From contig JAFQTD010000016.1 in the NCBI GenBank assembly GCA_017409215.1, positions 5,128 to 69,127 on the forward strand: a stretch of DNA of 64,000 bases, in the 5' to 3' direction. The position numbers and the translations under genes were made by a program. The notes below the pieces were generated by a model, which did no database searches, was not told the origin of the DNA, and was given only the letters and a program-made list of their open reading frames with translations. Positions 10,864 through 52,407 of the stretch are shown here, piece by piece (position 1 is the stretch's first letter; each line of letters begins with the position of its first letter). This stretch comes from Alphaproteobacteria bacterium (GTDB taxonomy: Bacteria > Pseudomonadota > Alphaproteobacteria > Rs-D84).

Positions 10864-10877
10864 ATTTTTTCCTTTGT

Positions 10878-11594: not shown

Positions 11595-11717
11595 TTTTTA
11601 TCCTTTGTTTAAATACGAACAGCAATATAATAATCAAAGATACATAAAATGCAACTTTTTTGGGTTTGCTTTTTTTCATAATGTTGTTATGCTATCATAT
11701 CTGAACAAAGGATTTTT

Positions 11718-12740: not shown

Positions 12741-12949
12741 ATACCTTGATAATCTGTATATACACGTGTTAGAATAACCGTTGGTGTAATAAAATAAGGT
12801 TATAAATAACGTGTTTATGTTATCACTAATTTCGACAATTCGAATGGCACTGATGATTAACGTGGTGCATTCCCTTGGCATGGGCTGGGACGCCCCATGG
12901 GGACGGGTTGTTTGTCTGACCGACACCGTAAAAACAAAAGGATTACTAG

Positions 12950-14743
12950 ATGTCAAAAAAAATATACGTGGATGCAGTCCACCCAGAAGAAACACGCGTT
13001 GTTGTCGTTGATACAGCAACCAATCGTGTGTCTGATTTTGATGTTGAAACCACTACCAAGCCACAAATCAAAGGCAATATATATCTGGCCAAGGTGATAC
13101 GTGTTGAACCATCCTTGCAGGCGGCCTTTGTTGATTATGGAACTGGGAAAAATGGTTTCTTGCCATTTTCGGAAATTCATCCTGACTATTATCAGGTTTC
13201 TGCAGAACAGAAAAAAAAGTTGCTGGAATTGGCACACGCAAATATCGTTGACGATGACGATGACCCAAATGATGAAGAGGATGAAGTCGCAGAATACGAC
13301 GACCACAGCGCAGGTGAAGATAATAACGAATTCTTGAAACGCGCACGTGAATTTAAAATCCAAGATGTAATTAAACCTAAACAAATATTGCTGATACAAG
13401 GGGTCAAAGAAGAACGCGGCCAAAAAGGCGCATCGATGACAACATACTTGTCTTTGGCGGGTCGATTTGCTGTATTGATGCCAAATTCACGCAAGCGCAA
13501 CAGTTATGGTATTTCGAAAAAAATATCCGACAAGGCAGAACGTGCAAGACTGCGTGAAATATTACACAACCTTAAAATACCAAAGGGTATGACCGTCGTT
13601 CTGCGCACAGCCGCAATGGGCGCACAGGCATCTGATATCGCAGCAGATTATGATTATCTGGTAAATTTGTGGAACGATATCAGAAAGACAACATTGGAAT
13701 CAATCGCACCTGTCACAATTCATACCGAAGATTCATTGTTGCGTCGCGTTGTTCGCGATTTCTTGAGTGACAAGGAAGACGTTTTGGTAATCCAAGGCGA
13801 AGAAGCATACGATGCCGCAAAACAATATTTTCAGCAAATGTATGGGCGCGCACCACGCAAACAGTTGGTGAATTATAAAGATGTTGCTGTACCCTTGATG
13901 GTCAAGGCCGGTGTTGAAAAGCAACTGGAAGGTCTGCATGGGCCATACGTGACATTGCCATCGGGTGGTTCATTGGTGATTAATCAAACCGAAGCAATGG
14001 TGACAATTGATGTTAATTCTTCGCGTGCAATCAAGGAAAAAGATATTGAACAGACTGCACTGAACACTAATTTAGAAGCGGCCGAAGAAATCGCACTGCA
14101 ATTGCGCCTGCGTGATTTGGCGGGGATTGTTGCGATTGACTTTATCGATATGGAAGACGAAAAGAATAATCGCAAACTGGAACTGAAAATGCGCGAGGTT
14201 ATGAAACGCGACCGCGCCAGAACACAAGTTGCAAAGATTAATAACTTTGGTGTGTTGATGTTGTCGCGTCAAAGACTGCGCAGCAGTTTTATGGAATCTT
14301 CGTATGTGCCCTGCCCGCACTGTCTGGGCGCGGGGGTCGTGCCATCAATTCAAACAGCGGCGGTTATTATGTTCCGTCACCTGCAAGAAAAATTACTGGC
14401 CAAGGCAGCACAGAAAATCATTATGACGGTGCCAACAGATGTCGCGGTTTACCTGTTGAATCACAAACGCGCCGAATTGGCTGCGATGGAGGATGAGTTC
14501 GAAACAGAAATCGTAATCGTTGGTGACGACAGTATGATGAATATCGATCAATATTCAATTCAACGCGTCGCCCCAGAACAAATCAAGACAGATGAAATAC
14601 TGGGGGCGTACGTTCCATCGACTGATGCAAAAAAGAAAAATACACAGCATGTGGACGCAAAAAAAACAACTGTTAATGCACAACGCCGTAAGCGTAAAAA
14701 ACAACAGAAAAAGAAATCTTTCTGGCAAAAATGGTTGCGATAA
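12950..14743 (+). CDS. rne: Ribonuclease E/G family endoribonuclease
   Basis: IKGNIYLAKVIRVEPSLQAAFVDYG; IDVNS; QLRLRDLAGIVAIDFIDM; CPHC.G.G Zn link. Confidence 0.95.
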   Translation: MSKKIYVDAVHPEETRVVVVDTATNRVSDFDVETTTKPQIKGNIYLAKVIRVEPSLQAAFVDYGTGKNGFLPFSEIHPDYYQVSAEQKKKLLELAHANIVDDDDDPNDEEDEVAEYDDHSAGEDNNEFLKRAREFKIQDVIKPKQILLIQGVKEERGQKGASMTTYLSLAGRFAVLMPNSRKRNSYGISKKISDKAERARLREILHNLKIPKGMTVVLRTAAMGAQASDIAADYDYLVNLWNDIRKTTLESIAPVTIHTEDSLLRRVVRDFLSDKEDVLVIQGEEAYDAAKQYFQQMYGRAPRKQLVNYKDVAVPLMVKAGVEKQLEGLHGPYVTLPSGGSLVINQTEAMVTIDVNSSRAIKEKDIEQTALNTNLEAAEEIALQLRLRDLAGIVAIDFIDMEDEKNNRKLELKMREVMKRDRARTQVAKINNFGVLMLSRQRLRSSFMESSYVPCPHCLGAGVVPSIQTAAVIMFRHLQEKLLAKAAQKIIMTVPTDVAVYLLNHKRAELAAMEDEFETEIVIVGDDSMMNIDQYSIQRVAPEQIKTDEILGAYVPSTDAKKKNTQHVDAKKTTVNAQRRKRKKQQKKKSFWQKWLR

Positions 14744-28082: not shown

Positions 28083-28237
28083 TTTTTACCTTTTCTATGC
28101 GATATAAAATCAACATCTTTTGATTTTATCATGATATATTTTACACCAAACTTATCTGATTTTCTTTTTAAGTCAGGTAAATATTTTGCATATGTGGTTT
28201 TAACTGCGCCAGCCCCACCAGTAATATAAATCTTCAT
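28079..28237 (-). pseudogene. Remnant of a P-loop nucleotide kinase-like gene
   Basis: 52-aa ORF beginning MKIYITGGAGAVKTTYAK: a degenerate Walker A with the rest of the domain missing. Confidence 0.5.
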
Positions 28238-28259
28238 ACAAATTATTTTTTATTAAACC

Positions 28260-28303
28260 TATAAAATTATTAGAATATTTATATAAAATTATTAGAATAT
28301 TTA
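28260..28303. repeat. 22-bp tandem duplication
   Basis: tataaaattattagaatattta x2. Confidence 0.8.
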
Positions 28304-28448
28304 AAATATAATATTTCAACAAAAAACGTTCTTTTTAAGCAATTTTTGACTTCGTGTTTTTATTTATATATCAAATTTTAATTTATTGTTCGAATCCATA
28401 GTCCCACCAAACTAAATGAAAATACCGCATCAACTGCGGTATTTTTGT

Positions 28449-28656
28449 TTATCTCTGGTCGGGGCGACAATGAGTAAATTTGCCAAGTGCCAAACGCAGG
28501 CAAATTGTCAGGAATGCCACGCAGATTTATCACATTTTGTGATAAAGCGAGTGAAACGTTCGAACCTGACAAAAGAATTTTGTCGTTTGAATCCGTACGT
28601 TCCAAACAGAAAATTAAAACCGCCGCAAATGCGACGGTTTGAATTTTCTGGTCGGG
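28449..28656. repeat. tRNA-3'-end-linked multi-hairpin unit bounded by two copies of the tRNA-Pro 3' end
   Basis: Inverted repeats aatttgcc/ggcaaatt, tttatcaca/tgtgataaa, gacaaaa/ttttgtc and aaaccg/cggttt. Confidence 0.6.
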
Positions 28657-28916
28657 ATTGTTTTATCAACGGTATTCTACATCCATTACAAATCCCTGAT
28701 ACACACGAAATTTCAGGGAATTCATCTCAAAAACCGCCCTTTCCCGCCACAAAAACACCCTTTCCCATAAAATTAACAGGGAATAATTTGATAAAAACAA
28801 GGAACAACCCAACAACATCAAGGAAACACAACGATAAAATCTTGCAAAATCAATGCACTTTGCTAGAATTACCGACAAAAGAACCATACGTTTATGCATA
28901 ACACAAGGGGCACTCT

Positions 28917-29801
28917 ATGAAAATAGTAGAACGACTTGTTTCATCTGATGGCAGCATTAAATATATTTTTCAAAACCATAATGGCTATTATTGCGAGGCC
29001 ATTTATTACAGATTGCCGCCAAAGAATAACACACCATATGAAAGATACCATATATGTATATCTTCTCAGTTTGGTTGCAAAATGAAATGTTCTTTTTGTG
29101 ACACAGGAAACCTAGGATTTTGTCACAACCTTTCTTCTGAAGAAATGTTAGAAGAAATAAGTCTAGTTCGTCAAGACATCATAAAATCGGGAAAAGAAAA
29201 AGCATCTACAAAATATAGTGCTGTAATTATGGGAATGGGCGAACCGTTAAACAATCTTGAAAACACAGCCAAATTTTGCACAACACTAACAACAACAGAT
29301 CCAAAGTTAGAAACGATCCCAATTTCATCGGTCGGAATTGTTTCACAAATACCAAAATTAGCCCAAATGCAAAATCAATTAAAAAACATTAAATTTTTTG
29401 TATCTTTGCATTCCCCATATGATGAACAACGCAACCAAATTATGCCAATAAATAAAAGATATAACATTTCGTCTTTATTATCAGCATGCCAACAGTATCA
29501 TTTAGATACCAACAGTAAAGTCACCTTAAGTTATATGTTAATGGAAGGCGTAAATGATACTGACAAACATTTAAGCGATTTGACAAAACTGATTAGCCCA
29601 GAACATTTTAAGGTTCAATTATTATTGTATAACAACACAACCAATTCAAACTTTATACGTCCAGCAATTGAAACCGCCAACTTATTCAATGAACATCTGA
29701 ACAAAAATGGCATCTCTTCTATAATAAGAGTAAGCAAAGGTCAAGACATTAGCGGTGGCTGTGGTCAATTAATCGCACTTCAGAAAAACAAACAAAAATA
29801 A
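28917..29801 (+). CDS. RlmN/Cfr-family radical SAM RNA methyltransferase lacking the N-terminal domain
   Basis: CISSQFGCKMKCSFCDTG; MGMGEPL; SLH; GCGQL. Confidence 0.85.
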   Translation: MKIVERLVSSDGSIKYIFQNHNGYYCEAIYYRLPPKNNTPYERYHICISSQFGCKMKCSFCDTGNLGFCHNLSSEEMLEEISLVRQDIIKSGKEKASTKYSAVIMGMGEPLNNLENTAKFCTTLTTTDPKLETIPISSVGIVSQIPKLAQMQNQLKNIKFFVSLHSPYDEQRNQIMPINKRYNISSLLSACQQYHLDTNSKVTLSYMLMEGVNDTDKHLSDLTKLISPEHFKVQLLLYNNTTNSNFIRPAIETANLFNEHLNKNGISSIIRVSKGQDISGGCGQLIALQKNKQK

Positions 29802-29824
29802 ATCGCCTAAAAGGCGATTTATTT
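29796..29824. terminator. Bidirectional terminator
   Basis: aaataaatcgcct-aaa-aggcgatttattt. Confidence 0.8.
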
Positions 29825-30519
29825 TATAATTTATTCAAATCAATACAGCCATCTGAGACATTACATTGAATTTTTTCACCTTTTCTGAACATATAATAAT
29901 CACGATCACCAATAACCCTCACTCTGTCTCCATCTATAATAATACTATCCTCCTCTGGTAACGCAATTACAGGATAAGTTTTTGACAGTTCTGTTAAATG
30001 CTCCGTAGCTAATTTTGTTTTCTCTTCATTCTTATTCGTGTAATGAGCAGCAATAGAAAAGCCACCTACAAAGTTATAACCATCCAAATCCAACAATTCT
30101 ACATTATTCTTATCCGAACTTGTTTTAATTGTCTGGCCAAATATAATAGCACCGGCACTTGACCCATAAACCACACCCCCGTTCTTTAAATACTCATTAA
30201 TATTATGTAAAAACTGTGTACTTTTCAAATCTCGCAACAATTTATAAGTATTACCGCCACTAATGTATATCATGCCAAAATCTGACAAATTTAGTCCTGC
30301 CAAATGCTCAACTGAATCAGCCATGACCAATTCAGTATAATTTATATTTGCTATTTCCGCAGACAACCACTTTTTTGAGTTTTCATATCCCGATTCATCT
30401 TTTTCTCTGGCCAAAGGAATACATAATATTGGTTTTGTGTTATCTATCATGGAATTTAATACAGCATAAATATTTTGTGTTTTATCACTACAACCACCAC
30501 CATTCAAAATCAATTTCAT
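29824..30519 (-). CDS. Peptidase S51 (PepE/class I GATase-like) family protein
   Basis: L.GGG; IPLA; YISGGNT..L; GSSAGA; HY. Confidence 0.85.
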   Translation of the reverse strand: MKLILNGGGCSDKTQNIYAVLNSMIDNTKPILCIPLAREKDESGYENSKKWLSAEIANINYTELVMADSVEHLAGLNLSDFGMIYISGGNTYKLLRDLKSTQFLHNINEYLKNGGVVYGSSAGAIIFGQTIKTSSDKNNVELLDLDGYNFVGGFSIAAHYTNKNEEKTKLATEHLTELSKTYPVIALPEEDSIIIDGDRVRVIGDRDYYMFRKGEKIQCNVSDGCIDLNKL

Positions 30520-30566
30520 AGACGTCTCCTTTGTTGTGTAATTATAAACACTTTTTATTCACTAAC

Positions 30567-32699
30567 TCAACCCTTTTGACGAGTTTTTATCACTCTAAAT
30601 TTATTATTTTCAAACAAAATCTCACACATCTCGATATCTTCATACTTTTCTTTGGATATACAGGCCTTCAAATTACTCATTGCCGCACTATGCATAATAA
30701 TAGCAATATTTTTACAAGTACTTTCAAGCACAACTTTATTCAGGAAAGCCAACAAGCGTTTGTTTAACTGATTTATACTTTCTCCACCGGGGATTGGCAT
30801 ATTATGATATCTAAACGCGCGTTGCACAGGTTTTTCTTTCAGAAAATCCGAAAATTTCATCCCCTGATATACCCCCATATTTAATCCACGCAACTCCCTA
30901 TGAAAAGATAACGGCTTGCCTATCTGCTTATTGGCCAATACAGCCGTATTTTTTGCTCGTTCCAGATCAGAGGCATATATTTCTTCTATGTTATTTGCTA
31001 TAAAATATCTAGCAATTTCATTTATCTGTTCTAAACCTTTGGTTGTAAATTCTACGCCATAATCATCCATTTGACCTTTTACAAGTCCAGCAGCATTCCA
31101 TGTAGTTTCCCCGTGTCTATAAATATATATTTTCTTGGTGGCAGATTTTGTAGAACTTTCAGATAATTTCTTCATGGTCATAACCCTTTTAGTAAGCCGT
31201 CTCTCTACATCTAAGCCTGTTTCTTGAACAATCTCACTAATGCTATTAATATTATTGCCAGACAATCTGTTATAATGACTGATAGCTCTGTCTAATTCCT
31301 CTGTCGACAATCTATAATGTCCTAATTTTACCAACTCCAAAAAATCTCTAAATGTTGTAGCATCATGATCTTTTTTAAGCTCTTGATGTAAAATTGAATA
31401 CCCAGACTTTTTATAATTTCTTTTTAATTCATTTACACTTAAATCTAATGCTTTTTGCAATTCTAACGGCAATCTTGATAAAGCAAATTTGTTTACCCGA
31501 TTTTCTTTTATATAATCCTGCAATACTCTTATAGTATAATAAAGTCTAGTCTTTTCTTCTTCAAACAACAAGGTTCCAGCGTAATCGCGCACACTGACCG
31601 ATTTCATTAATGTCACACTATGTGGAGCAATCTCATTAATTATACCTTCTCTATATGCCGCACCCTTTTCGATAAACGACAGCGTCAAAGGATCGGCAAG
31701 AGTTTTCTTATAAACAGTATGATAATCATCTTCATATATATTTAAAAGATTATCTTGTACACGATTTTGCCAAGTACACACATTTCCATTATATTCAATA
31801 ATCCAGTCCAGCCCCCTCTTACCATTAGAATTAAAAGCTATAGACGGAAAATTTGACTGACTTTGCACAGTATCCTTATTATATACATCAATTGTTCGCG
31901 CAATAGAAGATTTATCATGCAAATTTGGGCGCAAATTAGAATCAAAAACCCTTGAACACCCAACTATAACCGAATAACCTGTATCAAAATTAATTTTGAA
32001 TTGTTTTGGCATTATCTTGACAACATTATTATCATCAGATTTATTTACCCCAACATAATCGATAGAAAATCCCGGCTTAAACTCTCTTAGATATTGCTCT
32101 AATGCCGTATCGCCGTCAAAAGTTTTCAATTGCAGCGTAAAATTTTTATTATCCTTGTATTTTGTTTCAAATATGTTCAACAAGTTAATCAAAGGATAAT
32201 GTTTTAGCTTTATACTGTGATCGTTACTAACACTTAATCGAATTGACAACCTGGTTGGCGTTTCCCTTTTGTTTAAAGCGTTTTCTAGATCTTGCAAATA
32301 ACTTAAAGCCTTCTTTCCATTATAAGCCCATATTCCACTAGTAACCAAAATAATTCTATCCGCTTTTATCTTTTCTATACTTTTTAGTATAGCCTCGCGC
32401 TCCAAAAACGGTTCTCCTCCACCAGATATTTGCAAATAACCAACATTTGCATTGTTTGCAAACTCTATAAATTTGTCAACCCCTTCCGATGAAAACTTAT
32501 CTTCTATCCCGCCAGATTTAGTAGGCGAAGGGCTTGAAAAGAAACAAAAAGGACACCCTACACCACAATAAGAAGTAAAGAACACACATATCAGAGATTT
32601 TCCCGCATACAAGGAATCATGAGTATTTATTAACGTCTTTTGTTCTAAAATACGTTCACGATAAAACTGTGGATTATCAAAAATATTTATCTCTGCCAT
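30567..32699 (-). CDS. Radical SAM domain fused to C-terminal histidine phosphatase
   Basis: CGVGCPFC (CxxxCxxC) and SGGGEPFL; C-terminal YIYRHGETTWN, SDLERA, PGGES, H. Confidence 0.85.
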   Translation of the reverse strand: MAEINIFDNPQFYRERILEQKTLINTHDSLYAGKSLICVFFTSYCGVGCPFCFFSSPSPTKSGGIEDKFSSEGVDKFIEFANNANVGYLQISGGGEPFLEREAILKSIEKIKADRIILVTSGIWAYNGKKALSYLQDLENALNKRETPTRLSIRLSVSNDHSIKLKHYPLINLLNIFETKYKDNKNFTLQLKTFDGDTALEQYLREFKPGFSIDYVGVNKSDDNNVVKIMPKQFKINFDTGYSVIVGCSRVFDSNLRPNLHDKSSIARTIDVYNKDTVQSQSNFPSIAFNSNGKRGLDWIIEYNGNVCTWQNRVQDNLLNIYEDDYHTVYKKTLADPLTLSFIEKGAAYREGIINEIAPHSVTLMKSVSVRDYAGTLLFEEEKTRLYYTIRVLQDYIKENRVNKFALSRLPLELQKALDLSVNELKRNYKKSGYSILHQELKKDHDATTFRDFLELVKLGHYRLSTEELDRAISHYNRLSGNNINSISEIVQETGLDVERRLTKRVMTMKKLSESSTKSATKKIYIYRHGETTWNAAGLVKGQMDDYGVEFTTKGLEQINEIARYFIANNIEEIYASDLERAKNTAVLANKQIGKPLSFHRELRGLNMGVYQGMKFSDFLKEKPVQRAFRYHNMPIPGGESINQLNKRLLAFLNKVVLESTCKNIAIIMHSAAMSNLKACISKEKYEDIEMCEILFENNKFRVIKTRQKG

Positions 32700-33649
32700 G
32701 TTATCCTACTTTGATAAGAATTATTTTTGAATTCTAAATCGATATAACGCTTCATGTACTCCAATATTTGCTCATCAGACAAGTGTAATTTTTCTTTCCA
32801 ATATGCTAGTGCTTTATTATATTGTCTAAAGTTCCACATAATAGCCTTACGATGAGAACGAACATTTTCAACGTTTTCATTTTGTAGGGTGGCAACAGCA
32901 ACCATTGTATCCGCCAATTTTATCTTTTCTATCGAATCTATTTCAAATACATCTGCCATACGACAACTTTGTAACGAATTATGATTCCCATATTTACACA
33001 TAGAAAAAACAATATTGCTCATTCCCATATCTACTGCAAGTTTGCGACCCTGTGTTTCCATCATTACAACCGCTGCAACAGCTAAAAATTCACTCGTTCC
33101 CGCTTTCCTTACAGCGATATTAAAATCCCTACCATATATCCCCTGTTCATCCAGACCGTACGAATGAACGTATCTAGAACTTTTTGAGTCCAGTTCTCTA
33201 TGAACTCGTTTATCTACATTTTTTATGGCCTCTAATAAATCTGTATCATTAGAACTGATTCTTATCGACAAATCTTCTGGCTTAATAGCTAAATAATTAG
33301 GATTCATCAAATAATCAAACGTATCATGTACAACTTCTTCCATACAAGGCAGACTCAAAGTTCCCATTCCTCTGAAACACGTTCCAAATTTGCTCCATTC
33401 TGTGTTTTGCAAATTCTTTCTGCCATGCAATCTAAAACAATCTTGAATCAAAACATGCCCCGATGGCGATATAGAATAATCGAGAACCTTATCTTTAAGA
33501 ACAGATATTTTAGAACCAATAAAATCAACGCTCTTATCAACTCTCGAGGTTATGTTTACTGGCTTTTCTTTAACATACCCCTTGGCACCAAAGCAATCAA
33601 GAAAACCTTCTTCCACAAAATCTAGAAAATCACTATATTTATTAGACAT
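32687..33649 (-). CDS. Alanyl-tRNA synthetase catalytic-domain paralog (no editing domain)
   Basis: FLDCFGAKGY, DKSVDF, QDCFR, TCFRGMGTLS, VDMGM and LADTM align by eye to AlaRS FLDFF.SKGH, DPTLLF, QRCVR, TFFEMLGNFS, VDTGMGLER and IADH. Confidence 0.7.
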   Translation of the reverse strand: MSNKYSDFLDFVEEGFLDCFGAKGYVKEKPVNITSRVDKSVDFIGSKISVLKDKVLDYSISPSGHVLIQDCFRLHGRKNLQNTEWSKFGTCFRGMGTLSLPCMEEVVHDTFDYLMNPNYLAIKPEDLSIRISSNDTDLLEAIKNVDKRVHRELDSKSSRYVHSYGLDEQGIYGRDFNIAVRKAGTSEFLAVAAVVMMETQGRKLAVDMGMSNIVFSMCKYGNHNSLQSCRMADVFEIDSIEKIKLADTMVAVATLQNENVENVRSHRKAIMWNFRQYNKALAYWKEKLHLSDEQILEYMKRYIDLEFKNNSYQSRITWQR

Positions 33650-33937
33650 GTCGCCCCCTGTTTAAATTTCAATTTGACGAACATATTATTAGACCACAAG
33701 GTACCAGCTATTTTGTTTTTGTCAATATATTTTTATAAAAACCCCACAAAAAACAGTAAATTATTTCGCACCAAGAGAAAAAACACTCGTTAAAACACCT
33801 ATTCAAATACAAAAAAACATATACTTCTCTTATTTTGTCTTATTTCCAACAAAAAACAAATTTATAAACGCATTTTACTTGCATCGTAGGTATATTTTGA
33901 CACAATTAGCATAACATAACTCATTTAGGATAAAAAC

Positions 33938-36900
33938 ATGCCAAAAAATAAAACAAACAGTATAAAAAAACCATATTTTATTACAGATAGCGAAAAATCT
34001 TTTAAACCAAATTCTAGAAGCATAATAGACCTAAACAAAGAAACAGAAGATCTATTAAATGCTTCTATATACTCTAATGCCATCAAAAAAGCCATTGAAA
34101 ACGCCCCTATCGACAACGGAACCTTTATCATAGGGATTTTCGGAGAATGGGGAATTGGCAAATCCACAATTATCAAAAATATTAAAGAAGAGCTAGAGTC
34201 GCAAGCTAAGCGAAAGAAATGCTATAAATTTATTATTTATGATGCATGGAAATTTGTAAAAGACAGTTTCAGAAGATCTTTTTTATTATACTTGGTTGAT
34301 GCTTTACTCTTGAACAAAACGCCTTATATGGAGAAAATCTACCAAAACAAAACCGAAGAAACTAATATAACTGTTAAATATAACTCAAAAAAATTCTGGT
34401 ATTTTACAGTTTTTCCTTGGATATTAAGTTTAGTTTCTATTGTTTGTATATGGGCATACGGGACGGGAAATGATACCTTAAAAATAATTTCAAGTATTAT
34501 ATTTCCTTTTATTTCATTGATTATAAATTCTCTCGGAAAAATTTTTGATGAATTAAAAACAACAAAACAAACGCCGGCAATATTCTCCGCTGAGCAGTTT
34601 ACAGAATGTTTTGCTGAAATATTGGCACAAAGCCTAAAAAAAACTAACTTTATAAAAAGAATTTGTAATTGGGTCAACGGCACTCCAACTTATGATAAAC
34701 TAATTATAGTAATAGACAATATTGACAGATGTAGTGCAGATACAACTTACGAACTCCTAAGTACCATCAAAACGTTTTTAATAAATCACGATAATCTAAT
34801 TTTAGTCATTCCGGTTGACGAAGTCGCCTTGTGCGAGCATTTACAATCCAGATTTGATAACAAACCAGATAGAGCAAAAGAATTTCTCCGCAAAATATTT
34901 AATTTAGAAGTTCGTATAAAGCCATTAGACAGCGTTGAATTATATGAATTTACTAACAAAATAAATCAAGACTATGATCTTGATTTCTCACCAGATGCCA
35001 TAGATATTATATCAAAAGAATATGCAACCAATCCAAGAAGGATCATTCAATTTTTTAATAACGCCCAAACCGAATGGGATATTGTCACACAAAGAATAAA
35101 AAACTTTTCCCCCAAAGACACAATATTAGCCAGAAATACGATGTGCAAATTACTGATTATTCGTGAAGAATGGCCATTTTACTATGAGCAAATAAGAAAA
35201 GATCCTAAAAAACTATTATCTGGTAAGTATACAAACAAACCAAATGAACAAAATAACCTTGCGCTAGATACATTTTTAAGGTCAACAGAATTCTATCCAA
35301 TACTAACAGATGAATTTAAATTGAACAGAATAATATCTAATAATAACATGTTTGATGCTTTGCCTATACAAACATTAGAAGACTTAAAGTCATTCGACAT
35401 TCCAAAACTTACCGCATTTATAAAAGCATCTAGTGAAAATGAAACAAAAACTTTCAAATATTTAGAAACGCAAATAAAAAATGCTATAAAACGTAATATT
35501 ACTGGTACCACAGCCACATTATTCAAATTTATATTGCAAATAAATAGAGCTATAGGCGGACTTTCAGAACAAAATAATATACGATTACAAACTATCCTAA
35601 ATGAACATGTTGGCCCCATCGTTTCTACCATACTAGAAAAAACACCAATAGAACACTTTGCTGACGAATTAATAGAATATATAAACGCACAAAATCAAAG
35701 TAAGCGCACATATTTATTCCACGAGATAATGAATAACTGTATTATTCCTACTATAAAAATCCCCCAAACATACGAAAAATACACCCCAACAAATACAGAT
35801 TTGCTATATGCAAAACTAATAACCAGTATCACAGACAAAAAATTATTCGATAAATATAAAAAACATTTCTGCCTATGGAAACAATATATATCAGACGACA
35901 TTGTCAATATTAACAACATAGCAGCAACAGACTTACAATACTTTATTACAAACGATTTTCAAGAAGAGCTCATAAACGGAATAAAATTGACCGAAAACGA
36001 CGAAACTACGCACTTAGATACTATAATACATTTACTAAACAACTATAGACAAAATAAATCATTGATACAAAACATCTTTAGCAAACTGAATACAATATAC
36101 CCAAACTATACTGTGGGTCAAAAAAGTAAAAGTATAAAGTTTCTTAAAAACGTATTAGAATTACTGAAAGTAATAAAACCGCAAAACATAGGTGACGAAC
36201 TTCATTCCTTAATAAAAAAACTCTTATATTCCAGAACATATGGACAAACCATCGTCACACACGAAACATATGCAGATAAAGACGAATATATAAAGATGAT
36301 AGACATTTTATGCAAACTACTTAATTTTTCATTGGACAATCGATCTTCATATAATGCACAAACCGAACTAAATACATTATTAATCTCCTATTTGGAGCGA
36401 CTTATAAATCGAAATATAGAATTGCAAACAGATTTACTTCACTCCATAAAAACAAATATTACAAACCCTCAAGCTTCTATATATAAGCTTGCTAATTTAA
36501 TATTTGGGAAAAAAATTTATAACAACGATTATTGCTCTATCATGAAAGACATTGTAGTATGGCACTATTCCAACCGAGACATAAACTCTCCAGAATATTG
36601 GTGTATTGCTGATAACGCATTAGCTACAGAAATACATAATTTGTTATCAGAACTAAAAACATCTAACACGACTCAAAAGACTTTGTTTCAAGATTTGATA
36701 GACTATTTAAGTAAAAAAAGAAAAAACTGCATCGATTCTGTACTACAAACAATAAACGACTGCGCTATTATTGCCAACTTACCATCCCAATCAAAGATAA
36801 TAGCAATGCAACACATATATACAAATTTGCACGAATACGAATCCAACACAATGATGTTAAAACTAGTGGCCCAAAACGCCGATGTTGAAACTATCAAAAA

Positions 36901-37044: not shown

Positions 37045-38025
37045 TTAATATTTACGGAATAAAAAGTTTTTATGTCCAGACAAGTACCATTGGAACAAAT
37101 GCTGGACATCTTCTGTGGTTAAGTCATACTTTGGTATCCAATTCGCAAACGGGAAATCCCGTGTCATAAAATCATCATACGCACGTCTGCGTGTCGACAA
37201 CAATGCCTGTAAATTTTTGAGTATACTTTTATCAATACCGCTGATATTTTCTGATTTAGACCGCCGTATATCACGCACCGTACTTTTAATCAATGGCATA
37301 TCGGCATAAATATCGCGATATGCCATATACCACATATCGCACTGATGTCGCATTCGGGCGCATAATTCCACAGATTTCTGCAACATCTCAACCGTTGGGC
37401 GTTCATACGCCCGAAGTTGTAAAGTCTGCTGATACACCATTTCACGCTGACCGTCCGATAAACCCATTGTATCCCAACCGGTCTCCACATCTACCCAGAA
37501 CTCAAATTCTGCAAAAACCGCACATCTAATACGTTCGGCCCACAACGACACTTCTTCCATGATATTAAAATACGCAATTGCTTCCAGCATGCCGACAGCA
37601 CCAATCGCACGAATACGACTAACCTGTTCCTGTTTCAAAACGCCCATATTTAATTTTAGTCTGTCACGTTTGTTCGCATAGTCGCGCGCAGCATCTGGTT
37701 CTATAAAGCCGTCCGCCAAGAACCTGTCCCAAAACATTTGAGCCAACTGCTTACCTTCAGCTTTATGCACCTCTTTTAATACAACCAATATATTTTTCAA
37801 ATCCCCCTTGGTTGCGCCATTTACCAGATTTTTAAACATAGCATCCATTTTGGTCATTTTTTGACCATCTTTGGTCTGAACAACTTCGTTCATCTCACGC
37901 AACAAAACATCACTATATCCCGTCTTAGGCTTTGGCGGTCGCCCCATCGGGTTTCCTGAACGTCCCTTTTGAAATTGTCCACTTTTTGGCGGTTTGCGGT
38001 ATCCAACTGTATAATCTTTATTCAT
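37045..38025 (-). CDS. DUF5681 (TerS-like) domain protein with C-terminal extension
   Basis: VGYRKPPKSGQFQKGRSGNPMGRP. Confidence 0.85.
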   Translation of the reverse strand: MNKDYTVGYRKPPKSGQFQKGRSGNPMGRPPKPKTGYSDVLLREMNEVVQTKDGQKMTKMDAMFKNLVNGATKGDLKNILVVLKEVHKAEGKQLAQMFWDRFLADGFIEPDAARDYANKRDRLKLNMGVLKQEQVSRIRAIGAVGMLEAIAYFNIMEEVSLWAERIRCAVFAEFEFWVDVETGWDTMGLSDGQREMVYQQTLQLRAYERPTVEMLQKSVELCARMRHQCDMWYMAYRDIYADMPLIKSTVRDIRRSKSENISGIDKSILKNLQALLSTRRRAYDDFMTRDFPFANWIPKYDLTTEDVQHLFQWYLSGHKNFLFRKY

Positions 38026-39322
38026 TTCTTGCCCCCATCAATAATTCATTATATGTACGTTCCAAACCCACATTCACCGCATTTTTACCCGTCAACTTTT
38101 GCCAGCGCAGTATTGCAACATCAACATACTTGGGTTCTATCTCAATCCCGCGACAAACGCGCCCAACCCGTTCACATGCCAATAAAGTGGTTCCTGAACC
38201 TAAGAATGAATCTAGCACCACATCACCACGGTTAGTCACATCCATAATCGCATCTGCAACCATCTGAACATTTTTCACCGTTGGATGCAGTTTCAAATCA
38301 TCACGATTTTCACCAAAACTGTTTACCCCCGGATAATCCCAAACATTTGTACGATAACGACCATTCGCCCCAAGTTCCACATTGTTGATATGTGGCGCAC
38401 GACCATTTTTATAAACAAATATCAGTTCATGCTTTGACCGATATAACGATCCCATACCCCCAGACGCCTTATTCCACACGCACAGATTCTTCATTTCTGT
38501 ATAAACATCATCACAGGCTGCTGTAATCTCTATAATATGTCGCCAATCCATGCACAAATAATGCAACGAACCATCAACAGACCAATCACGCAGATTTGTA
38601 AATGCCGTCCGCAGGAATTGTGTAAACTGCTCACGCGACATTTCGCCAGATGCCATCGCAAATTCATCATGATGTACACGTCCTGCACCACATACATGTC
38701 CATCAACAGGTACATTATATGGCGCATCTGCAAACACCATCTGGGCAAGAAGGCCATCAGACATCAGCTTTTCAAAACTTTCGCATTTTAATGCATCACC
38801 GCAATAAATCAAATGCTGGCCCAATCGCCACAAATCCCCAGGGCGCGAAACAATGTGTCCATTATCAACATCCGGCATATCATCGGCATGGTCATACTCC
38901 ATCAAGTCATCATTTTGTCCCTGAATCAAAACATCTAATTCGGCCGTTTCAAAACCAATAACATCCAGGTTAAAGTCCAAATCAGACAAATCTTTCAGTT
39001 CCAGCCCCAACAAATCCCTGTCCCAATCACCATTTATCGTCAGTTGATTGTCTGTTATACGATATGCGCGCTTTTGGGCATCTGTCAAATAATCAATCCG
39101 TACACATGGCACAGAATCCAAACCTAACTTTTTAGCCGCCAATAAACGCCCATGCCCCGTTAACAAGACATTATCTTCATCAACCAGCAACGGATTAGTA
39201 AAATCAAATTCAGTAATAGAATTTGCAATTTGACAAACGTGTTTATCGTTATGCAATCGCGCATTACGAGAATACGGTCTAATATCACATGGGTTTTGAT
39301 ATATAATTTTTAATTCTGTCAT
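38018..39322 (-). CDS. ParB-like domain plus N6/N4 DNA methyltransferase
   Basis: PY.RNAR.H; GHGRL.AA; DAPYN; HPTVKN; DSFLGSG. Confidence 0.9.
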   Translation of the reverse strand: MTELKIIYQNPCDIRPYSRNARLHNDKHVCQIANSITEFDFTNPLLVDEDNVLLTGHGRLLAAKKLGLDSVPCVRIDYLTDAQKRAYRITDNQLTINGDWDRDLLGLELKDLSDLDFNLDVIGFETAELDVLIQGQNDDLMEYDHADDMPDVDNGHIVSRPGDLWRLGQHLIYCGDALKCESFEKLMSDGLLAQMVFADAPYNVPVDGHVCGAGRVHHDEFAMASGEMSREQFTQFLRTAFTNLRDWSVDGSLHYLCMDWRHIIEITAACDDVYTEMKNLCVWNKASGGMGSLYRSKHELIFVYKNGRAPHINNVELGANGRYRTNVWDYPGVNSFGENRDDLKLHPTVKNVQMVADAIMDVTNRGDVVLDSFLGSGTTLLACERVGRVCRGIEIEPKYVDVAILRWQKLTGKNAVNVGLERTYNELLMGARNE

Positions 39323-39641
39323 ACATATTCCTTTCTTTATCAAACATATTCACCAGAAAGGAAGTACATAATATGTACGGAATAGCAAGGAAAGGCAAAA
39401 AATGCCTTGTACACATTATGACATCCTTTCCTTTACTTTCCGAAACCATCATACACAAAACACGCGAACAAAGCAAGAAAAACCGCAGTTTTCTGCGGCT
39501 TTGAAAAGAGAATCTCTTTTTTTATTTTTTATAGAAATATCACCCTGATAATTCCCTGTTTTTATAAAAGCGCCCCAAATAAAGCCGACATAAAAAATAT
39601 CTTCAACATAAATTTTTTTACTAATTTCTGCAGGGTAAAAC

Positions 39642-40372: not shown

Positions 40373-40973
40373 ATGACGCGTGGAATTATATATGTAATGT
40401 GGAATGAACTGTTCCCGGAACTTGTAAAAATAGGCATAACCAAAGGCAATTCATCAACAGATGTTGAAAAACGTCGCAGAGAATTATCTTGTGGTGAAAA
40501 CATGCCACAACCATTTGAAGCCAAGTTTGCAATTTGTGTTAACAATTACGAAAAAATAGAACGTATAATTCACAAGGGGTTAACGAAATTGCGTCACAAC
40601 CCACATCGGGAATTCTTTAAATTAAGTGTGGACGAAGCCATAAACCTGTTATCAGGCTATATAATCAGTGGCAGTGCCGTTGAAGTCCCAATCAAAAACT
40701 CTTTCAAATCCGATGAGAAAGCAGCAATCAAAAACATGCAAAAACAACGTGACAGCATATCGTTCCGTTCTTTAAATATACCAGTTGGCACAACATTAAC
40801 GTTTGCAAACGCAAAACACCTGACAGTTAAGACAGCCAATGACGGGCGTCGCATAATTTTACCAAATGGGAAAACCGCCACATTATCCATCGCCGCCAAA
40901 AGATTTCACATACCGTGGCAAAACCCTGTGGGAATTGTCGCTAGAAAAACAACGCACCAACATCGAAGCATAA
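40373..40973 (+). CDS. T5orf172/GIY-YIG domain protein, apparently frameshifted near 40900
   Basis: GIIYVM.N..FPELVKIGIT; E..IH..L...R.NP.REFF; an alternative frame gives FTYRGKTLWEL..* followed by a terminator. Confidence 0.7.
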
Positions 40974-41000
40974 TAAAACCGCCCAACTGGGCGGTTTGTT

Positions 41001-41273
41001 TTAAACGGCCTTACACAATGTACAATCCACATAAAACGGCGTCACGTTATTAGGATTGTTGCATTCTGCACACAAGGGAACAATATAAACAGTGTCATCA
41101 AAACTTTCATATTTACGCACATGCGCCCCATGCTCTGCACGTTTCGTGCAACCACAACACGCACAATAAACAGCATGGTTTCCTGTTTTCTTTTCCCAAT
41201 ATTCCAACCAAGATGAATACAAAAATGGCGGATTCATATTGGCCGTTCTTCTTGCATTTATTACTTTGAACAT
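41001..41273 (-). CDS. Small Cys-rich HNH-like protein
   Basis: CACCGC...GAHV...YIVPLCAECN. Confidence 0.6.
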   Translation of the reverse strand: MFKVINARRTANMNPPFLYSSWLEYWEKKTGNHAVYCACCGCTKRAEHGAHVRKYESFDDTVYIVPLCAECNNPNNVTPFYVDCTLCKAV

Positions 41274-41867: not shown

Positions 41868-42353
41868 ATGTCATATTATCACACATCAAAACCAGAAACA
41901 TTAGCCGAACTGCGCCGACTGCCATTTGCACAGCGCGCCACCATGTGGGAAAAGTACACAGGATATACATTCCATCGTCAAAATACTGCATTGTGGTATT
42001 ACATCCAATGCGAACGCAAAAAACTTAAAATCGCAGCTAAACACATCAATAAAATTCAAACATATATCAACAATCCAGACAAATGCCTGACACAAATACC
42101 CAAGAACCGATACAACCTACACCCAGGCAAAACGATGACCAAAGAATTTCACGGGACAACCCATAATGTATTGGTCGCTGACGGATATTTCCTGTATCAC
42201 GACAAAATGTACAAAACATTATCCGCTGTTGCACGTGCAATCGCGGGCTTCAAGGTATCTGGGCCCGACTTTTTCGGCCTTGTAAAAAGGAAATCACAAT
42301 GCAAAAAATTAAATGCGCAATCTATACCAGAAAATCCACAGAACATGGACTAG
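41868..42353 (+). CDS. DUF2924 domain protein
   Basis: L.PG....KEFHG..H.V.V..G.F.Y....YKTLSAVARAIAG...SGPDFFGL. Confidence 0.85.
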   Translation: MSYYHTSKPETLAELRRLPFAQRATMWEKYTGYTFHRQNTALWYYIQCERKKLKIAAKHINKIQTYINNPDKCLTQIPKNRYNLHPGKTMTKEFHGTTHNVLVADGYFLYHDKMYKTLSAVARAIAGFKVSGPDFFGLVKRKSQCKKLNAQSIPENPQNMD

Positions 42354-43873
42354 AACTAGAATTTAATTCCCTGCAAAATCAAGAAGAATCCTGTAAAGCA
42401 TATATCGCATCACAGGCATTTAATGGTTGGGAATATGTCAAAACATATTCAGACGCTGCAATTTCTGGTGGCACAATGTACCGGCCTGCATTACAACAAA
42501 TGCTGACTGATATGGCACATGGATTGATAAATACAGTCGTTGTGTACAAGGTCGACCGCCTATCACGTTCCATACTAGATTTTCACAAAATGATGCAATA
42601 TTTTGAAAAACACAATGCAAATTTTGTATCAATAACCCAATCATTTGACACATCAAATTCCATGGGCAAATTAACACTGAACATGCTGTTGTCCTTTGCC
42701 CAATTTGAACGTGAAGTATCCAGTGAACGTGTTCGCGATAAATTATATGCCAGCAAAGCAAAAGGAATGTGGATTGGCGGATTACCAACATTGGGGTACA
42801 ATCTGGAAGACAAAAAACTGGTTATCAACCCGACCGAAGCAGAAACAGTAAAACATCTGTTTGAAAAATATCTAGAATTAGAATCTGTGGTTGAATTGGC
42901 ACAATATGCACGAAAAAACGGGATAAAAAATAAATACTGGATAACACAAAACGGCACACCGCACGGTGGTGGGGAATTATACCCCAGCATTTTACATCGT
43001 CTATTGCGGGACAAAGTATACATTGGTAAAATCACACATAAAAAAACAAGTGAAGTGTTTGACGGAATACACAAACCAATAATCACCCAAGAATTGTTCG
43101 ATCAAGTCCAAAAAGTACTGGAAAAGAACGCAAATCATCGCCATAAAAACACACGCAGTTCCGCAAACCTACTAAGCAGAAAATTATTTGATGTAAACGA
43201 TTGCCGTTTCATAAATCAAATGACACTTAATCGCGGCAAAGGCGATAAATACTATTATGCAATCCCAGGCTTTTATATATCCGCCCCAACTGTTGATGAA
43301 ATCATAAGTACTAAAATCACAGATTTTTTGAACAGCGATATGAACACGTTGCCTGAATCCGCCAAAACAATCCTGAAAAGCATCGATATAAATACAATGC
43401 TGTTTGAACGCAAACGAGAATTGTTCAGAACGCTTATTGAAAAAGTTATTTATACGGACAACTTGTTAACCATATACTTGAACACAACCAACGAAAATCT
43501 AACCCAATATTCAACCACAGGTTTTATAAATCAAAATTTTAACACTATGGATTATACGATCGTCAATAACACAATCATCATAAAGGCGGCAATTATCATA
43601 CGCAAAACCAATCACAACAACGCAATTACTGTAACCCACAATAACCACCTAATAATGCATGCGATTGCAACCGCATTCAAATATCGTAAAATTTATGAAC
43701 AAACCGGCTCTATAACCCAAATAATGAAATCCGACAAAATATCAAACCGCACCGCATACCGCTATCTAAGTATTGCGTACATGAATCCAAATGTATTGAA
43801 CGAGATTATGGATGGCAAACTGGGGTGCAATGTTGATGAGCTGTATGCGCTGGCGGCAAAAAATCAATTATAA
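42299..43873 (+). CDS. Large serine recombinase (island integrase)
   Basis: CAIYTRKST; VVYKVDRLSRS; LLSFAQFERE; G.W.GG.P.LGY. Confidence 0.95.
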   Translation: MQKIKCAIYTRKSTEHGLELEFNSLQNQEESCKAYIASQAFNGWEYVKTYSDAAISGGTMYRPALQQMLTDMAHGLINTVVVYKVDRLSRSILDFHKMMQYFEKHNANFVSITQSFDTSNSMGKLTLNMLLSFAQFEREVSSERVRDKLYASKAKGMWIGGLPTLGYNLEDKKLVINPTEAETVKHLFEKYLELESVVELAQYARKNGIKNKYWITQNGTPHGGGELYPSILHRLLRDKVYIGKITHKKTSEVFDGIHKPIITQELFDQVQKVLEKNANHRHKNTRSSANLLSRKLFDVNDCRFINQMTLNRGKGDKYYYAIPGFYISAPTVDEIISTKITDFLNSDMNTLPESAKTILKSIDINTMLFERKRELFRTLIEKVIYTDNLLTIYLNTTNENLTQYSTTGFINQNFNTMDYTIVNNTIIIKAAIIIRKTNHNNAITVTHNNHLIMHAIATAFKYRKIYEQTGSITQIMKSDKISNRTAYRYLSIAYMNPNVLNEIMDGKLGCNVDELYALAAKNQL

Positions 43874-44050
43874 TCCCCACGAACTGGCAGTGCGAAAAAG
43901 CCCATTGGATGTAAATGGGGCTTTTTTATGCATTTTTGCATCCGCAAAAACACATCCGTTTGCACACATCAAAAAACATCACCCGCAACCCCGCAGAACT
44001 CTGGGATATAAAAAATAAACGTGTGCCGAACACACGTCTATTATTATCTC

Positions 44051-44127
44051 TGGTCGGGGCGAAAGGATTCGAACCTTCGACACCTTGGTCCCAAACCAAG
44101 TACTCTACCAGACTGAGCTACACCCCG
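44051..44127 (-). tRNA. tRNA-Pro(TGG)
   Basis: Reverse complement CGGGGTGTAGCTCAGTCTGGTAGAG...TT TGG GA...GGTTCGAATCC...CGACCA. Confidence 0.97.
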
Positions 44128-52221: not shown

Positions 52222-52407
52222 TTGTGACCTCTTATTATCATGTAACATAATATTTTTTGCCTAAAAAATCCAGTTTTTTATTGGTAAATTGAAATAGTTA
52301 TATATTTTTTCACAAAATCAAAAAAATTTTTCAAGGCAGCTGGTCGCAACAATGTATATTATTAAGAATAAGGGTATTCCTTATTCGTTAAACATAAGGA
52401 GTATACT

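Follow-up and report, generated by a model that had tools for sequence, protein, structure and literature searches.

A mobile three-gene cassette of an alanyl-tRNA synthetase-like protein, a radical SAM-phosphatase fusion and an S51 hydrolase: a candidate undescribed pathway

Introduction

Which chemistry is carried out by three tightly packed genes that encode a truncated relative of alanyl-tRNA synthetase (AlaRS), a radical S-adenosylmethionine (SAM) enzyme fused to a histidine phosphatase (rSAM-HP), and a serine hydrolase of family S51? The question was raised by a stretch of 64,000 nt, called the window here, from contig JAFQTD010000016.1 of an alphaproteobacterial genome (GCA_017409215.1); coordinates refer to the window unless another contig or a locus is named. 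A preliminary description, made from the letters alone, had seen three minus-strand genes at 29824-33649, the first two overlapping, and had proposed that they form a compact pathway acting on a nucleotide or another small molecule. In the current study the three open reading frames (ORFs) were found at these positions (table 1). They are closely packed, with the ORF of the third protein (P0003) 47 nt beyond that of the second (P0002).

The trio proved to be a recurrent unit carried on mobile DNA. It is quite possible, and is the reading preferred here, that this cassette is a self-contained pathway in which a universal metabolite, probably a nucleotide, is modified by radical chemistry and dephosphorylated, is then aminoacylated in the manner of AcmF, an enzyme of ascamycin biosynthesis, and can be deacylated by the S51 enzyme. 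The evidence on the proteins, their linkage and their mobility is given first, followed by the variant loci and the competing explanations.

AlaRS-like protein

The product of the first gene, P0001, had been described as a 320-aa paralog of the AlaRS catalytic domain. Searches with the single sequence gave little indication of this: there was no match to P0001 in Pfam or in a PDB sequence search, and the score against the alaS model TIGR00344 (17.5 bits, E 9.6e-4) was far below the cut-off of 457 bits, which places the whole protein outside the AlaRS family (TIGR00344, PF01411). A profile of 21 sequences reached AlaRS at E 0.19 only, alongside chance matches to CD81, and its hhalign probability against AlaRS was 70%. 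The link became firm because of a profile of 139 sequences and a match of the fold. An exhaustive profile search, with representatives taken at the 50% identity clustering level, yielded 487 family members at E ≤1e-3 and 347 at E ≤1e-10, mostly 300–420 aa long. When the 139-member profile was set against 18 canonical AlaRS from the window's genome and its relatives (N-terminal 480 residues of each), 315 columns were collinear (hhalign probability 99.3%, E 3.9e-20). The matched region takes in the catalytic core together with the initial helices of the tRNA-recognition domain, and P0001 ends at about AlaRS position 350. Five of the more distant members examined also passed the PF01411 cut-off of 30.3 bits (P0238, 40.1; P0285, 39.6; P0255, 35.2; P0267, 33.1; P0172, 32.9).

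The AlphaFold2 model of P0001 (predicted local distance difference test, pLDDT, 91.8; predicted TM-score, pTM, 0.90) agreed with the profile. Its best 14 listed Foldseek matches were AlaRS catalytic fragments, including those of E. coli and A. aeolicus (3hxu, E 3.3e-15; 1riq, E 1.6e-14; TMq 0.70–0.74), followed by GlyRS-alpha, HisRS and ThrRS at E ~1e-6 and TM ~0.4. P0001 has the AlaRS catalytic-domain fold and is collinearly homologous to AlaRS; the similarity, which the preliminary description had staked on profile searches, survived both comparisons. A separate canonical AlaRS is encoded in the window's genome (808.5 bits), and P0001 is therefore a paralog. The canonical enzyme of this genus is itself short, at ~690 aa (G000 contig 9, 1313-3373, L015), covering model positions 1–696 of 847 with the C-terminal part absent; elsewhere in the order it measures ~860–900 aa.

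The predicted changes at the active site were also found. P0001 retains the Q-x-C-x-R of motif 2 (R73), in which Q is present in 139/139 and R in 132/139 family sequences; within the 21-sequence subfamily, the arginine position is occupied by R in 13 and by K in 8. The GLER of motif 3 is absent, VDMGMSN of P0001 being aligned to VDTGxGLER. The GGKHND loop and the FFEMLGN glutamate are gone, there is no editing or C-Ala domain, and the tRNA-recognition domain is incomplete. The Asp of VDTG is Glu in 127/139 sequences of the wider family. The near-neutral isoelectric point of P0001 (7.1) is uninformative on RNA binding.

A precedent for such a protein is AcmF of Streptomyces sp. 80H647. In a review (PMC12945691), AcmF is described as a truncated AlaRS-like protein which no longer has residues needed to bind ATP and activate alanine, and which moves alanine from Ala-tRNA to a nucleoside analogue held in the adenylate site, a reaction reversed by AcmE. 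Because of the loss of GLER and this Ala-tRNA-dependent precedent, P0001 is by analogy more likely a transferase than an ATP-dependent ligase, and an ATP-PPi exchange assay with P0001 may well be negative. The Asp-to-Glu change of the wider family, reported for AcmF as well, also favours a transferase.

One close relative of P0001 is fused to an HD phosphohydrolase domain (P0148). Fusions in the wider family (P0227, P0260, P0267) combine GNAT with an AlaRS-like part, an AlaRS-like part with a class I SAM methyltransferase, and a response-regulator receiver with an AlaRS-like part; the AlaRS-like family may serve several pathways.

Radical SAM-phosphatase fusion and S51 hydrolase

The 710-aa protein P0002 combines, as the preliminary description had claimed, a CxxxCxxC radical SAM domain with an RHG phosphatase. 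The cluster motif CGVGCPFC is found at residues 45–52 (C45, C49, C52). In Pfam, residues 33–135 matched Fer4_12 (38.7 bits, cut-off 22), and the Radical_SAM model gave 24.5 bits, below its cut-off of 29.5. Membership of the radical SAM superfamily is indicated by the CX3CX2C motif together with a partial TIM-barrel fold, and the top matches of the structural comparison (VIA) were all radical SAM enzymes.

Among solved structures, the model of the domain (pLDDT 94.1) is closest to that of the peptide epimerase EpeE (Foldseek E 2.7e-8; for 8ai1, VIA Z 18.7, root-mean-square deviation 3.8 Å, 293/317 residues, model residues 32–400). SuiB (Z 13.5), SkfB (12.6), BlsE (12.5), viperin (12.3) and MoaA (11.0) ranked below it. 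Because EpeE is the nearest fold, a peptide or aminoacyl substrate stays in play. Sequence matches to known families were confined to the first ~140 residues. There, over the cluster-binding region, the best neighbour was again YydG/EpeE (TIGR04078, 35.8 bits against a cut-off of 300; PDB 8ai6, E 3.2e-8). P0002 falls outside the EpeE family by this score and by its lack of cysteines for an auxiliary [4Fe-4S] cluster: residues 1–510 contain six cysteines in total, C38 and C308 are the sole conserved ones beyond the SAM cluster, and there is therefore no auxiliary cluster. The parallel with viperins drawn earlier did not hold for this domain, since P0002 scored 18.4 bits against the viperin model NF038283 (cut-off 180) and matched the PADLOC prokaryotic viperin (pVip) model at E 5.4e-4 over residues 37–113 only. 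An additional helical half (residues ~326–510, ~180 residues) is not well covered by any listed match.

At least 200 relatives of the radical SAM domain were collected in a word-index search with clustering at 90% identity, those among the matches listed being 43–96% identical. They occur either as fusions of ~710 aa or as stand-alone proteins of 510–545 aa. Invariant in the family are the cluster cysteines and a W-Q-N...D motif, and Cys308 is present in at least 90% of the sequences. The radical SAM domain of P0002 represents an uncharacterised family. No relative of it was found in IMG/VR, and matches in INPHARED and PLSDB were to the phosphatase part only.

The C-terminal domain was assigned to branch 1 of the histidine phosphatase superfamily by its His_Phos_1 score (111.2 bits, cut-off 21.7, residues 524–705), its RHG motif at 528 and His670, a candidate second catalytic histidine picked out by eye from a motif listing. 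It reaches no equivalog cut-off, the best being CobC (79.1 vs 162.9).

The third protein, P0003, is an S51 enzyme, as had been proposed, by its score (Peptidase_S51, 100.7 bits, cut-off 23.9) and its Ser-His-acid triad. It does not reach the PepE equivalog (80.9 vs 156). The GxSAG serine, the His and the acidic residue align in 14/14 S51 sequences. The S51 protein of the window shares only 16–24% identity with the lineage found at most other loci; the catalytic residues are nonetheless kept.

Conservation of the cassette

Recurrence elsewhere, which the preliminary description had named as a test of its proposal, was examined from two independent seeds, and the trio recurs across genome and metagenome loci. 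With the AlaRS-like protein as seed, 14 loci were obtained in species-representative genomes (Patescibacteria, Bacilli, Erysipelotrichaceae, Clostridia); a full rSAM-HP gene was present in 11/14, and an S51 gene was adjacent in 13/14. The exceptions are two loci cut by contig ends (L002, L007), a decayed one (L011) and one with another radical SAM enzyme (L003). With the radical SAM domain as seed, 35 metagenome loci were obtained, 15 of them with an AlaRS-like gene and 13 with an S51 gene. The AlaRS-like gene was found in 12/17 loci with fused rSAM-HP (two of the five lacking it begin at the radical SAM gene, so that the upstream region is unseen) and in three of four cut or broken loci, and neither an AlaRS-like nor an S51 gene was found in any of the 14 loci with a stand-alone radical SAM protein. 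Many loci are near-identical, so these counts overstate independence, and the number of architectures therefore outweighs the raw counts.

At least six independent architectures were distinguished. The order AlaRS-like, rSAM-HP, S51 is accompanied by a convergent RlmN-like gene in the window, L039 and G204, lies beside rnpA-yidC-jag in L004 and L005, and is part of a recombinase element in L006, L008, L013 and others. The S51 gene comes first, ahead of the AlaRS-like and rSAM-HP genes, in L001, L002, L043 and L045. In L009, L010, L012 and others the order is rSAM-HP, B12-radical SAM, AlaRS-like, S51 and metallo-beta-lactamase (MBL) genes, and L014 has a co-directional RlmN-like gene. Pairwise identities of the AlaRS-like and rSAM-HP proteins are correlated (r = 0.92; 45 pairs, 10 loci), and a single 951-aa protein (P0084) unites rSAM, His_Phos_1 and S51.

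No tRNA gene was found inside the cassettes in the 31 loci scanned, tRNA genes being present in the flanks only. Nor was a conserved small ORF found at the cassettes; the sole short ORF of the 5.9-kb element described below is the severed N-terminus of a carboxypeptidase gene. The KAP NTPase gene adjoining the window cassette was considered as a further member and ruled out, as it has no counterpart in any other locus.

Mobility and distribution

The cassette of the window had been placed in a mobile, defence-rich island, and this was borne out. Perfect 19-nt repeats, one of them at a tRNA-Pro gene, bracket a 15.6-kb island, in which the GC content is 0.30–0.36 for most of the length, compared with ~0.38–0.41 outside. 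A serine recombinase, a KAP/QatA-like NTPase, a methyltransferase and a T5orf172/PDC-S57 protein are encoded in it (table 1). Synteny with two genomes of the same genus was tried as a means of locating the borders; only ArgRS matched (~53% identity), and the borders were settled by the 19-nt repeat. Other cassettes adjoin tRNA-Ser (G204) and tRNA-Lys (L043) genes.

A more compact vehicle was found in ten loci from metagenome-assembled genomes (MAGs) of Bacilli/Erysipelotrichaceae type (L013, L006, L008, L053, L054, L056, L058, L059, L066, L071), which carry an element consisting of the AlaRS-like, rSAM-HP, S51 and large serine recombinase genes. This 5.9-kb element splits a gene for an S11 D-Ala-D-Ala carboxypeptidase at its SxxK motif. 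A 61-aa N-terminal stub remains upstream of the cassette, the recombinase gene comes directly after S51, and the C-terminal ORF of the carboxypeptidase follows the recombinase. In L013 the element occupies 7793-13665, with an 11-nt direct repeat at both junctions (7793 and 13655). The trio is the sole cargo of this serine-recombinase element, and it travels on mobile DNA among unrelated small-genome bacteria (Alphaproteobacteria, Patescibacteria, Bacilli, Clostridia). Five host genomes measure 0.9–1.8 Mb, that of the window 1.13 Mb.

The cassette is rare and its distribution sporadic. A full-length match to P0002 was present in 2/201 genomes of the order; a third genome encodes a stand-alone relative of the radical SAM protein, and in 14 others the match was to the phosphatase part only. 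The AlaRS-like profile was found in 2/399 scored genomes of the Bacilli class, both of them seed genomes. Near-identical DNA is present in animal gut metagenomes from several studies. Two cassettes are decayed: in L011 (7977-9257) the AlaRS-like gene is broken into two parts and only 95 aa of rSAM-HP are left, and in L066 (5376-7709) the radical SAM gene has fallen into three fragments. Some hosts can evidently dispense with the cassette.

Variant loci and neighbouring genes

In a genome of the same genus (G204), an rSAM-HP gene (67% identical), an S51 gene and an RlmN-like gene are preceded, at the position equivalent to that of P0001, by a gene for a 373-aa protein of a different AlaRS-like lineage. 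This protein was missed by the family hidden Markov model and matched AlaRS motif 3 and the following helical domain (probability 70%, E 4.2e-5), with YER where AlaRS has LER. In L003 (4940-9790), genes for a 437-aa protein, a 284-aa radical SAM enzyme, S51, an AlaRS-like protein and a second S51 lie between spoIVB and spoIIM, and there is no rSAM-HP gene; the same MAG carries a complete standard cassette on another contig (L010). The radical SAM enzyme of L003 is viperin-like (PADLOC pVip, E 5.7e-25 over nearly its full length; PDB viperins, E ~3e-5). Four activities thus appear to be required, namely radical SAM, phosphatase, AlaRS-like and S51, and these are supplied by differing proteins across loci. 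In L041 (2464-10867), rSAM-HP and S51 genes are accompanied by those of an ITPase-type NTPase, a B12-radical SAM enzyme, LysRS, an RlmN-like protein and a HAD protein. A LOOT RNA (RF03000, 79.6 bits) was detected at 10959-11076 of this locus.

The neighbours of radical SAM relatives point to nucleotides. Stand-alone relatives in L037 and L038 lie beside genes for an adenylate kinase and, weakly, a dTMP-kinase-like protein (TIGR00041, 36.7 bits, cut-off 83.25). A CYTH protein is encoded beside the relative in G037, NUDIX and phosphodiesterase proteins in L009, and an ANT(2'')-like nucleotidyltransferase in L046 and L047; the ITPase-type NTPase and the HAD protein of L041 belong to this context as well. 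An Exo_endo_phos protein, a Ppx/GppA phosphatase and an ABC exporter are encoded near stand-alone relatives in L050 and L057.

Stand-alone relatives in L048–L052, L055 and L057 belong to a different conserved operon (e.g. L050, 5889-14552), which encodes two paralogous proteins of ~360 aa, one of ~190 aa and one of ~287 aa, all uncharacterised, as well as an Exo_endo_phos protein and an ABC-2 exporter. By eye the ~190-aa protein resembles a minimal nucleotidyltransferase. Profiles of these proteins (~362, 190 and 287 aa) showed no similarity to the AlaRS-like, S51 or histidine phosphatase families (probability <1%). This operon is probably a second undescribed pathway.

Other features of the window

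The accessory RlmN-like gene, convergent with the operon, encodes a protein that scored 241.9 bits against the RlmN model (cut-off 290), with the alignment confined to model positions 70–349; the score and the missing N-terminal part place it outside the RlmN/Cfr family. A full RlmN is encoded elsewhere in the same genome (332.9 bits). A second N-terminally truncated RlmN-like gene of this genome lies on a 1.5-kb contig (contig 19, 170-991, L079; 257.3 bits, model positions 68–349), and the two truncated copies, that of the window and that of G000 contig 19, are 27.5% identical.

No riboswitch, T-box or other Rfam leader was found near the window cassette at E up to 1, and no leader element in 10 related loci at the gathering score. 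Promoter-like sites over 28200-34000 showed no excess (31, compared with 28.4 ± 5.8 in shuffled sequences). Parts of all three genes are covered by short contigs of RNA libraries from two studies at 90–99% identity; DNA carry-over is possible, so that this is not proof of transcription. Upstream of the RlmN-like gene, an ORF of 161 aa (28416-28901) starts before the left island repeat; it has no family match and no homologue in related loci, and may not be a real gene. Just upstream of it lies a perfect 22-nt tandem duplication (28260-28303). Outside the island, an OLD-family ATPase-TOPRIM nuclease is encoded at 50521-52248 (E 2e-30).

Table 1. Positions of the cassette genes, their domains and the surrounding features in the 64,000-nt window.
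Feature	Position	Strand	Remarks
P0001, AlaRS catalytic-fragment paralog, 320 aa	32687..33649	-	class II core and first helices of the tRNA-recognition domain
P0002, rSAM-HP fusion, 710 aa	30567..32699	-	start overlaps end of P0001 by 13 nt
P0002, radical SAM domain, residues 1-510	31170..32699	-	CX3CX2C at 45-52; conserved motif around Cys308
P0002, histidine phosphatase (His_Phos_1) domain, residues ~524-710	30567..31130	-	RHG at 528
P0003, S51 (PepE-like) serine hydrolase, 231 aa	29824..30519	-	GSSAG nucleophile at residue 119
RlmN-like radical SAM methylase, 294 aa	28917..29801	+	recurrent accessory gene; convergent with operon
Palindromic terminator-like hairpin	29795..29825	both strands readable	between convergent S51 and RlmN-like genes
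288-nt leader / divergent promoter region	33650..33937	-	upstream of AlaRS-like gene
Left 19-nt direct repeat	28449..28467		copy of tRNA-Pro 3' end plus 7 nt
Right 19-nt direct repeat	44044..44062		overlaps 3' end of tRNA-Pro(UGG), 44051-44127 (-)
DUF2924 protein and large serine recombinase (42299-43873)	41868..43873	+	tRNA end of island; presumed integration module
KAP/QatA-like NTPase, 1030 aa	33938-37030		within island
Type II DNA methyltransferase	38018-39343		within island; PADLOC MTase_II, E 2e-88
T5orf172 protein / PDC-S57	40373-41053		within island; E 9e-39

Discussion

The 5.9-kb element brings three enzymes only and works in very different bacteria, and the substrates must therefore be universal ones, i.e. 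SAM, nucleotides, amino acids or aminoacyl-tRNA. In the pathway proposed here, the radical SAM domain, with SAM and one [4Fe-4S] cluster, would take a hydrogen atom from a small molecule that carries phosphate and is most likely a nucleotide. This molecule would be rearranged or epimerised; the conserved Cys308 is a candidate hydrogen-atom donor. The fused phosphatase would then strip a phosphate from this product. The AlaRS-like protein, having lost the motif 3 arginine, would bind the product in the former ATP/adenylate pocket and add an aminoacyl group, probably taken from aminoacyl-tRNA. The S51 Ser-His-acid hydrolase would cut the aminoacyl bond, as AcmE does, for self-protection, activation or proofreading. 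Optional tailoring in some loci may be provided by RlmN-like and B12-radical SAM methylases, an MBL hydrolase and HAD-type proteins; these variable methylases and hydrolases around a constant core are like those that tailor the products of biosynthetic clusters. Such a pathway would end in an antimetabolite of aminoacyl-nucleoside type, directed against competitors or phages.

The idea of a compact nucleotide or small-molecule pathway is supported in part, by its context (the fusions P0084 and P0148, the nucleotide-related neighbours and the viperin-like enzyme of L003), and two points of it need revision, namely the ligase activity and the viperin likeness of P0002.

A more specific version is rather unlikely: the modified nucleoside, charged with an amino acid from aminoacyl-tRNA, would become a mimic of an aminoacyl-adenylate or of the aminoacyl-tRNA end and would poison translation in competitors or phage-infected cells. 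The S51 enzyme would be a built-in antidote, and the cassette a mobile mini-pathway shared across phyla.

Several observations weigh against the proposed nucleotide pathway. At the level of its chemistry, no ligand, product or phenotype has been observed. As modelled, the radical SAM fold, with the peptide epimerase EpeE as its nearest solved structure, points at least as much to the C-alpha of an aminoacyl or peptide substrate as to a nucleotide. The analogy with AcmF is incomplete, as the Asp of VDTG is kept in 21/21 sequences of the P0001 subfamily, in which the canonical WN Asn is lost. The cassette contains no exporter, regulator or sensor, the near-identity of many loci thins the evidence for linkage, and rSAM-HP occurs without an AlaRS-like partner in L046 and L047. 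In L041 a bona fide LysRS (578.8 bits) takes the place of the AlaRS-like gene; this LysRS may simply be a housekeeping enzyme. In the variant locus L003, both assignments are below their cut-offs: its radical SAM enzyme scored 78.5 bits against NF038283 (cut-off 180), more than the other five radical SAM proteins matched in that genome, and its 437-aa protein, in which a DxDxT motif was seen by eye, scored 19.2 bits against HAD_2 (cut-off 23.8) and had no match to the NT5C and HIT models.

A system aimed at tRNA or aminoacyl-tRNA is a rival explanation that we consider unlikely. The AlaRS-like protein would dock the acceptor end of (Ala-)tRNA, the radical SAM domain would alter or epimerise the amino acid or the terminal nucleotide, the phosphatase would trim a terminal phosphate, and S51 would deacylate; the tRNA, altered or disabled in this way, would serve in toxicity, in defence against phages or in repair. 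P0001 retains the initial helices of the AlaRS tRNA-recognition domain, the radical SAM domain is nearest in fold to a C-alpha epimerase, and a recurrent accessory gene is derived from the tRNA/rRNA adenine methylase RlmN. Furthermore, a cassette without other cargo would suit a substrate as universal as tRNA, and the window cassette lies among defence genes. However, P0001 stops at AlaRS position ~350, and alignments of the RlmN-like proteins to the RlmN model leave out its first ~70 positions. The part missing from the former reads the G3:U70 pair in AlaRS, and the part missing from the latter is the RNA-binding domain of RlmN, and both shortenings look like an adaptation to something smaller than RNA. 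Free nucleotides are suggested by the kinases, NTPase, CYTH, NUDIX and HD proteins that are fused to cassette proteins or encoded nearby, and the cassettes scanned for tRNA genes contained none.

Anti-phage defence by viperin-like logic, in which the radical SAM enzyme would make a nucleotide analogue that blocks replication or transcription upon infection, and the phosphatase, AlaRS-like protein and S51 would tune its level or convert it to a storage or prodrug form, is distinctly unlikely. It would suit the sporadic distribution (2/201 genomes of the order, 2/399 of the Bacilli class), the carriage on integrative elements and the use of a viperin-like enzyme instead of rSAM-HP in L003. Defence genes adjoin the window cassette (KAP/QatA-like NTPase, methyltransferase, T5orf172/PDC-S57), and others are found in L002 (SoFic, E 5.4e-47), L014 (type IIG restriction-modification enzyme, 1191 bits) and L039 (PDC-M45C). 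On the other hand, PADLOC-DB 2.0 has no model matching P0001 or P0003, the pVip match of P0002 extends over ~75 residues only, and most of 102 neighbour proteins from 14 loci had no PADLOC match at E ≤1e-5. Several loci lie amid housekeeping genes (rnpA-yidC-jag, proS, spoIVB), no sensor or regulator is present, the variable tailoring enzymes are more reminiscent of a biosynthetic cluster, and the radical SAM domain was not found in the phage collections searched, on either side of an arms race.

Maturation of a ribosomally synthesised peptide, which an EpeE-like enzyme would epimerise, the AlaRS-like protein extend by a residue and S51 trim, is highly improbable: the radical SAM domain has EpeE/YydG as its best match in both sequence and structure and S51 enzymes are peptidases, but the loci have no conserved small ORF, P0002 has no auxiliary cluster (C38 and C308 alone of its six cysteines being conserved beyond the SAM cluster), the TIGR04078 score is far below its cut-off, and it is not obvious what a fused phosphatase would do in the maturation of a peptide.

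If the proposed nucleotide pathway is correct, the cassette would give uncultured bacteria of the gut and of candidate phyla a minimal, transferable means of making an aminoacylated antimetabolite of nucleoside type. Should the product also poison translation, this would be the first such antimetabolite pathway outside the actinomycetes, carried as the sole cargo of a 5.9-kb element of gut bacteria. The cassette draws on a radical SAM family without a characterised member and on a large unnamed family derived from AlaRS, and as a three-gene unit it is small enough for direct testing. Even with tRNA or a peptide as the substrate, the conserved mobile trio is an uncharacterised functional unit.

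Comparison with known systems

The combination had been thought undescribed, and full-text searches of the literature (supplements not covered) indeed returned no description of it or of the rSAM-HP family; the term 'AlaRS-like' was found only in the AcmF review PMC12945691. PADLOC 2.0 has no model for the cassette.

With canonical AlaRS fragments (3hxu, 1riq), P0001 shares the fold, a collinear profile and the motif 2 Q-x-C-x-R; it differs in lacking GLER, the GGKHND loop and the editing and C-Ala domains, and in its score of 17.5 vs 457 bits. EpeE/YydG (8ai1) is the best structural neighbour of the radical SAM domain of P0002 (Z 18.7). The latter is only 16% identical to it, has no auxiliary-cluster cysteines and no precursor peptide gene, and carries both a further helical half (~180 residues) and a fused phosphatase.

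Prokaryotic viperins are radical SAM enzymes that act on nucleoside triphosphates and are often mobile. The cassette resembles them in the viperin-like enzyme that takes the rSAM-HP position in L003 and in the stand-alone relatives beside nucleotide kinases in L037 and L038, whereas P0002 itself is distant from viperin in sequence (NF038283, 18.4 vs 180 bits) and has a viperin Z of 12.3, well under that of EpeE. If the proposed pathway is correct, new chemistry would be added to this theme of radical-modified nucleotides.

Pairs of a radical SAM enzyme and a phosphatase are known from nucleoside antibiotics, namely OxsB/OxsA in oxetanocin, and PolH/PolJ and NikJ/NikL in polyoxin and nikkomycin. 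The likeness is one of biosynthetic logic: a nucleotide is rearranged by radical chemistry and then dephosphorylated, and in the peptidyl nucleosides an amino acid is attached as well. In the cassette the first two activities are fused, and the enzyme adding the amino acid would be AlaRS-like rather than a ligase of the ATP-grasp type.

For the aminoacylation step the best precedent is AcmF, with AcmE. As described in PMC12945691, AcmF keeps the aminoacylation and tRNA-recognition domains and carries a D-to-E change, and AcmE is a protein of alpha/beta-hydrolase fold. Compared with AcmF by that description and not by sequence, P0001 is likewise a truncated AlaRS-like protein with a hydrolase partner; it has lost GLER, and the D-to-E change also occurs in its wider family (127/139). 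It is shorter than the AcmF so described (320 aa), its subfamily retains the Asp, and the partner hydrolase is of S51 type rather than of the alpha/beta-hydrolase fold reported there. The partner chemistry also differs from that of ascamycin, being radical SAM and phosphatase rather than sulfamate formation, as do the hosts, which are small-genome gut and candidate-phyla bacteria with the genes on mobile DNA. If the reading preferred here is correct, the principle of AcmF, a synthetase relic used as an aminoacyl transferase, would extend far beyond Streptomyces. Each part of the cassette belongs to a known superfamily and its logic is akin to that of nucleoside-antibiotic and viperin pathways, but two of its families are uncharacterised.

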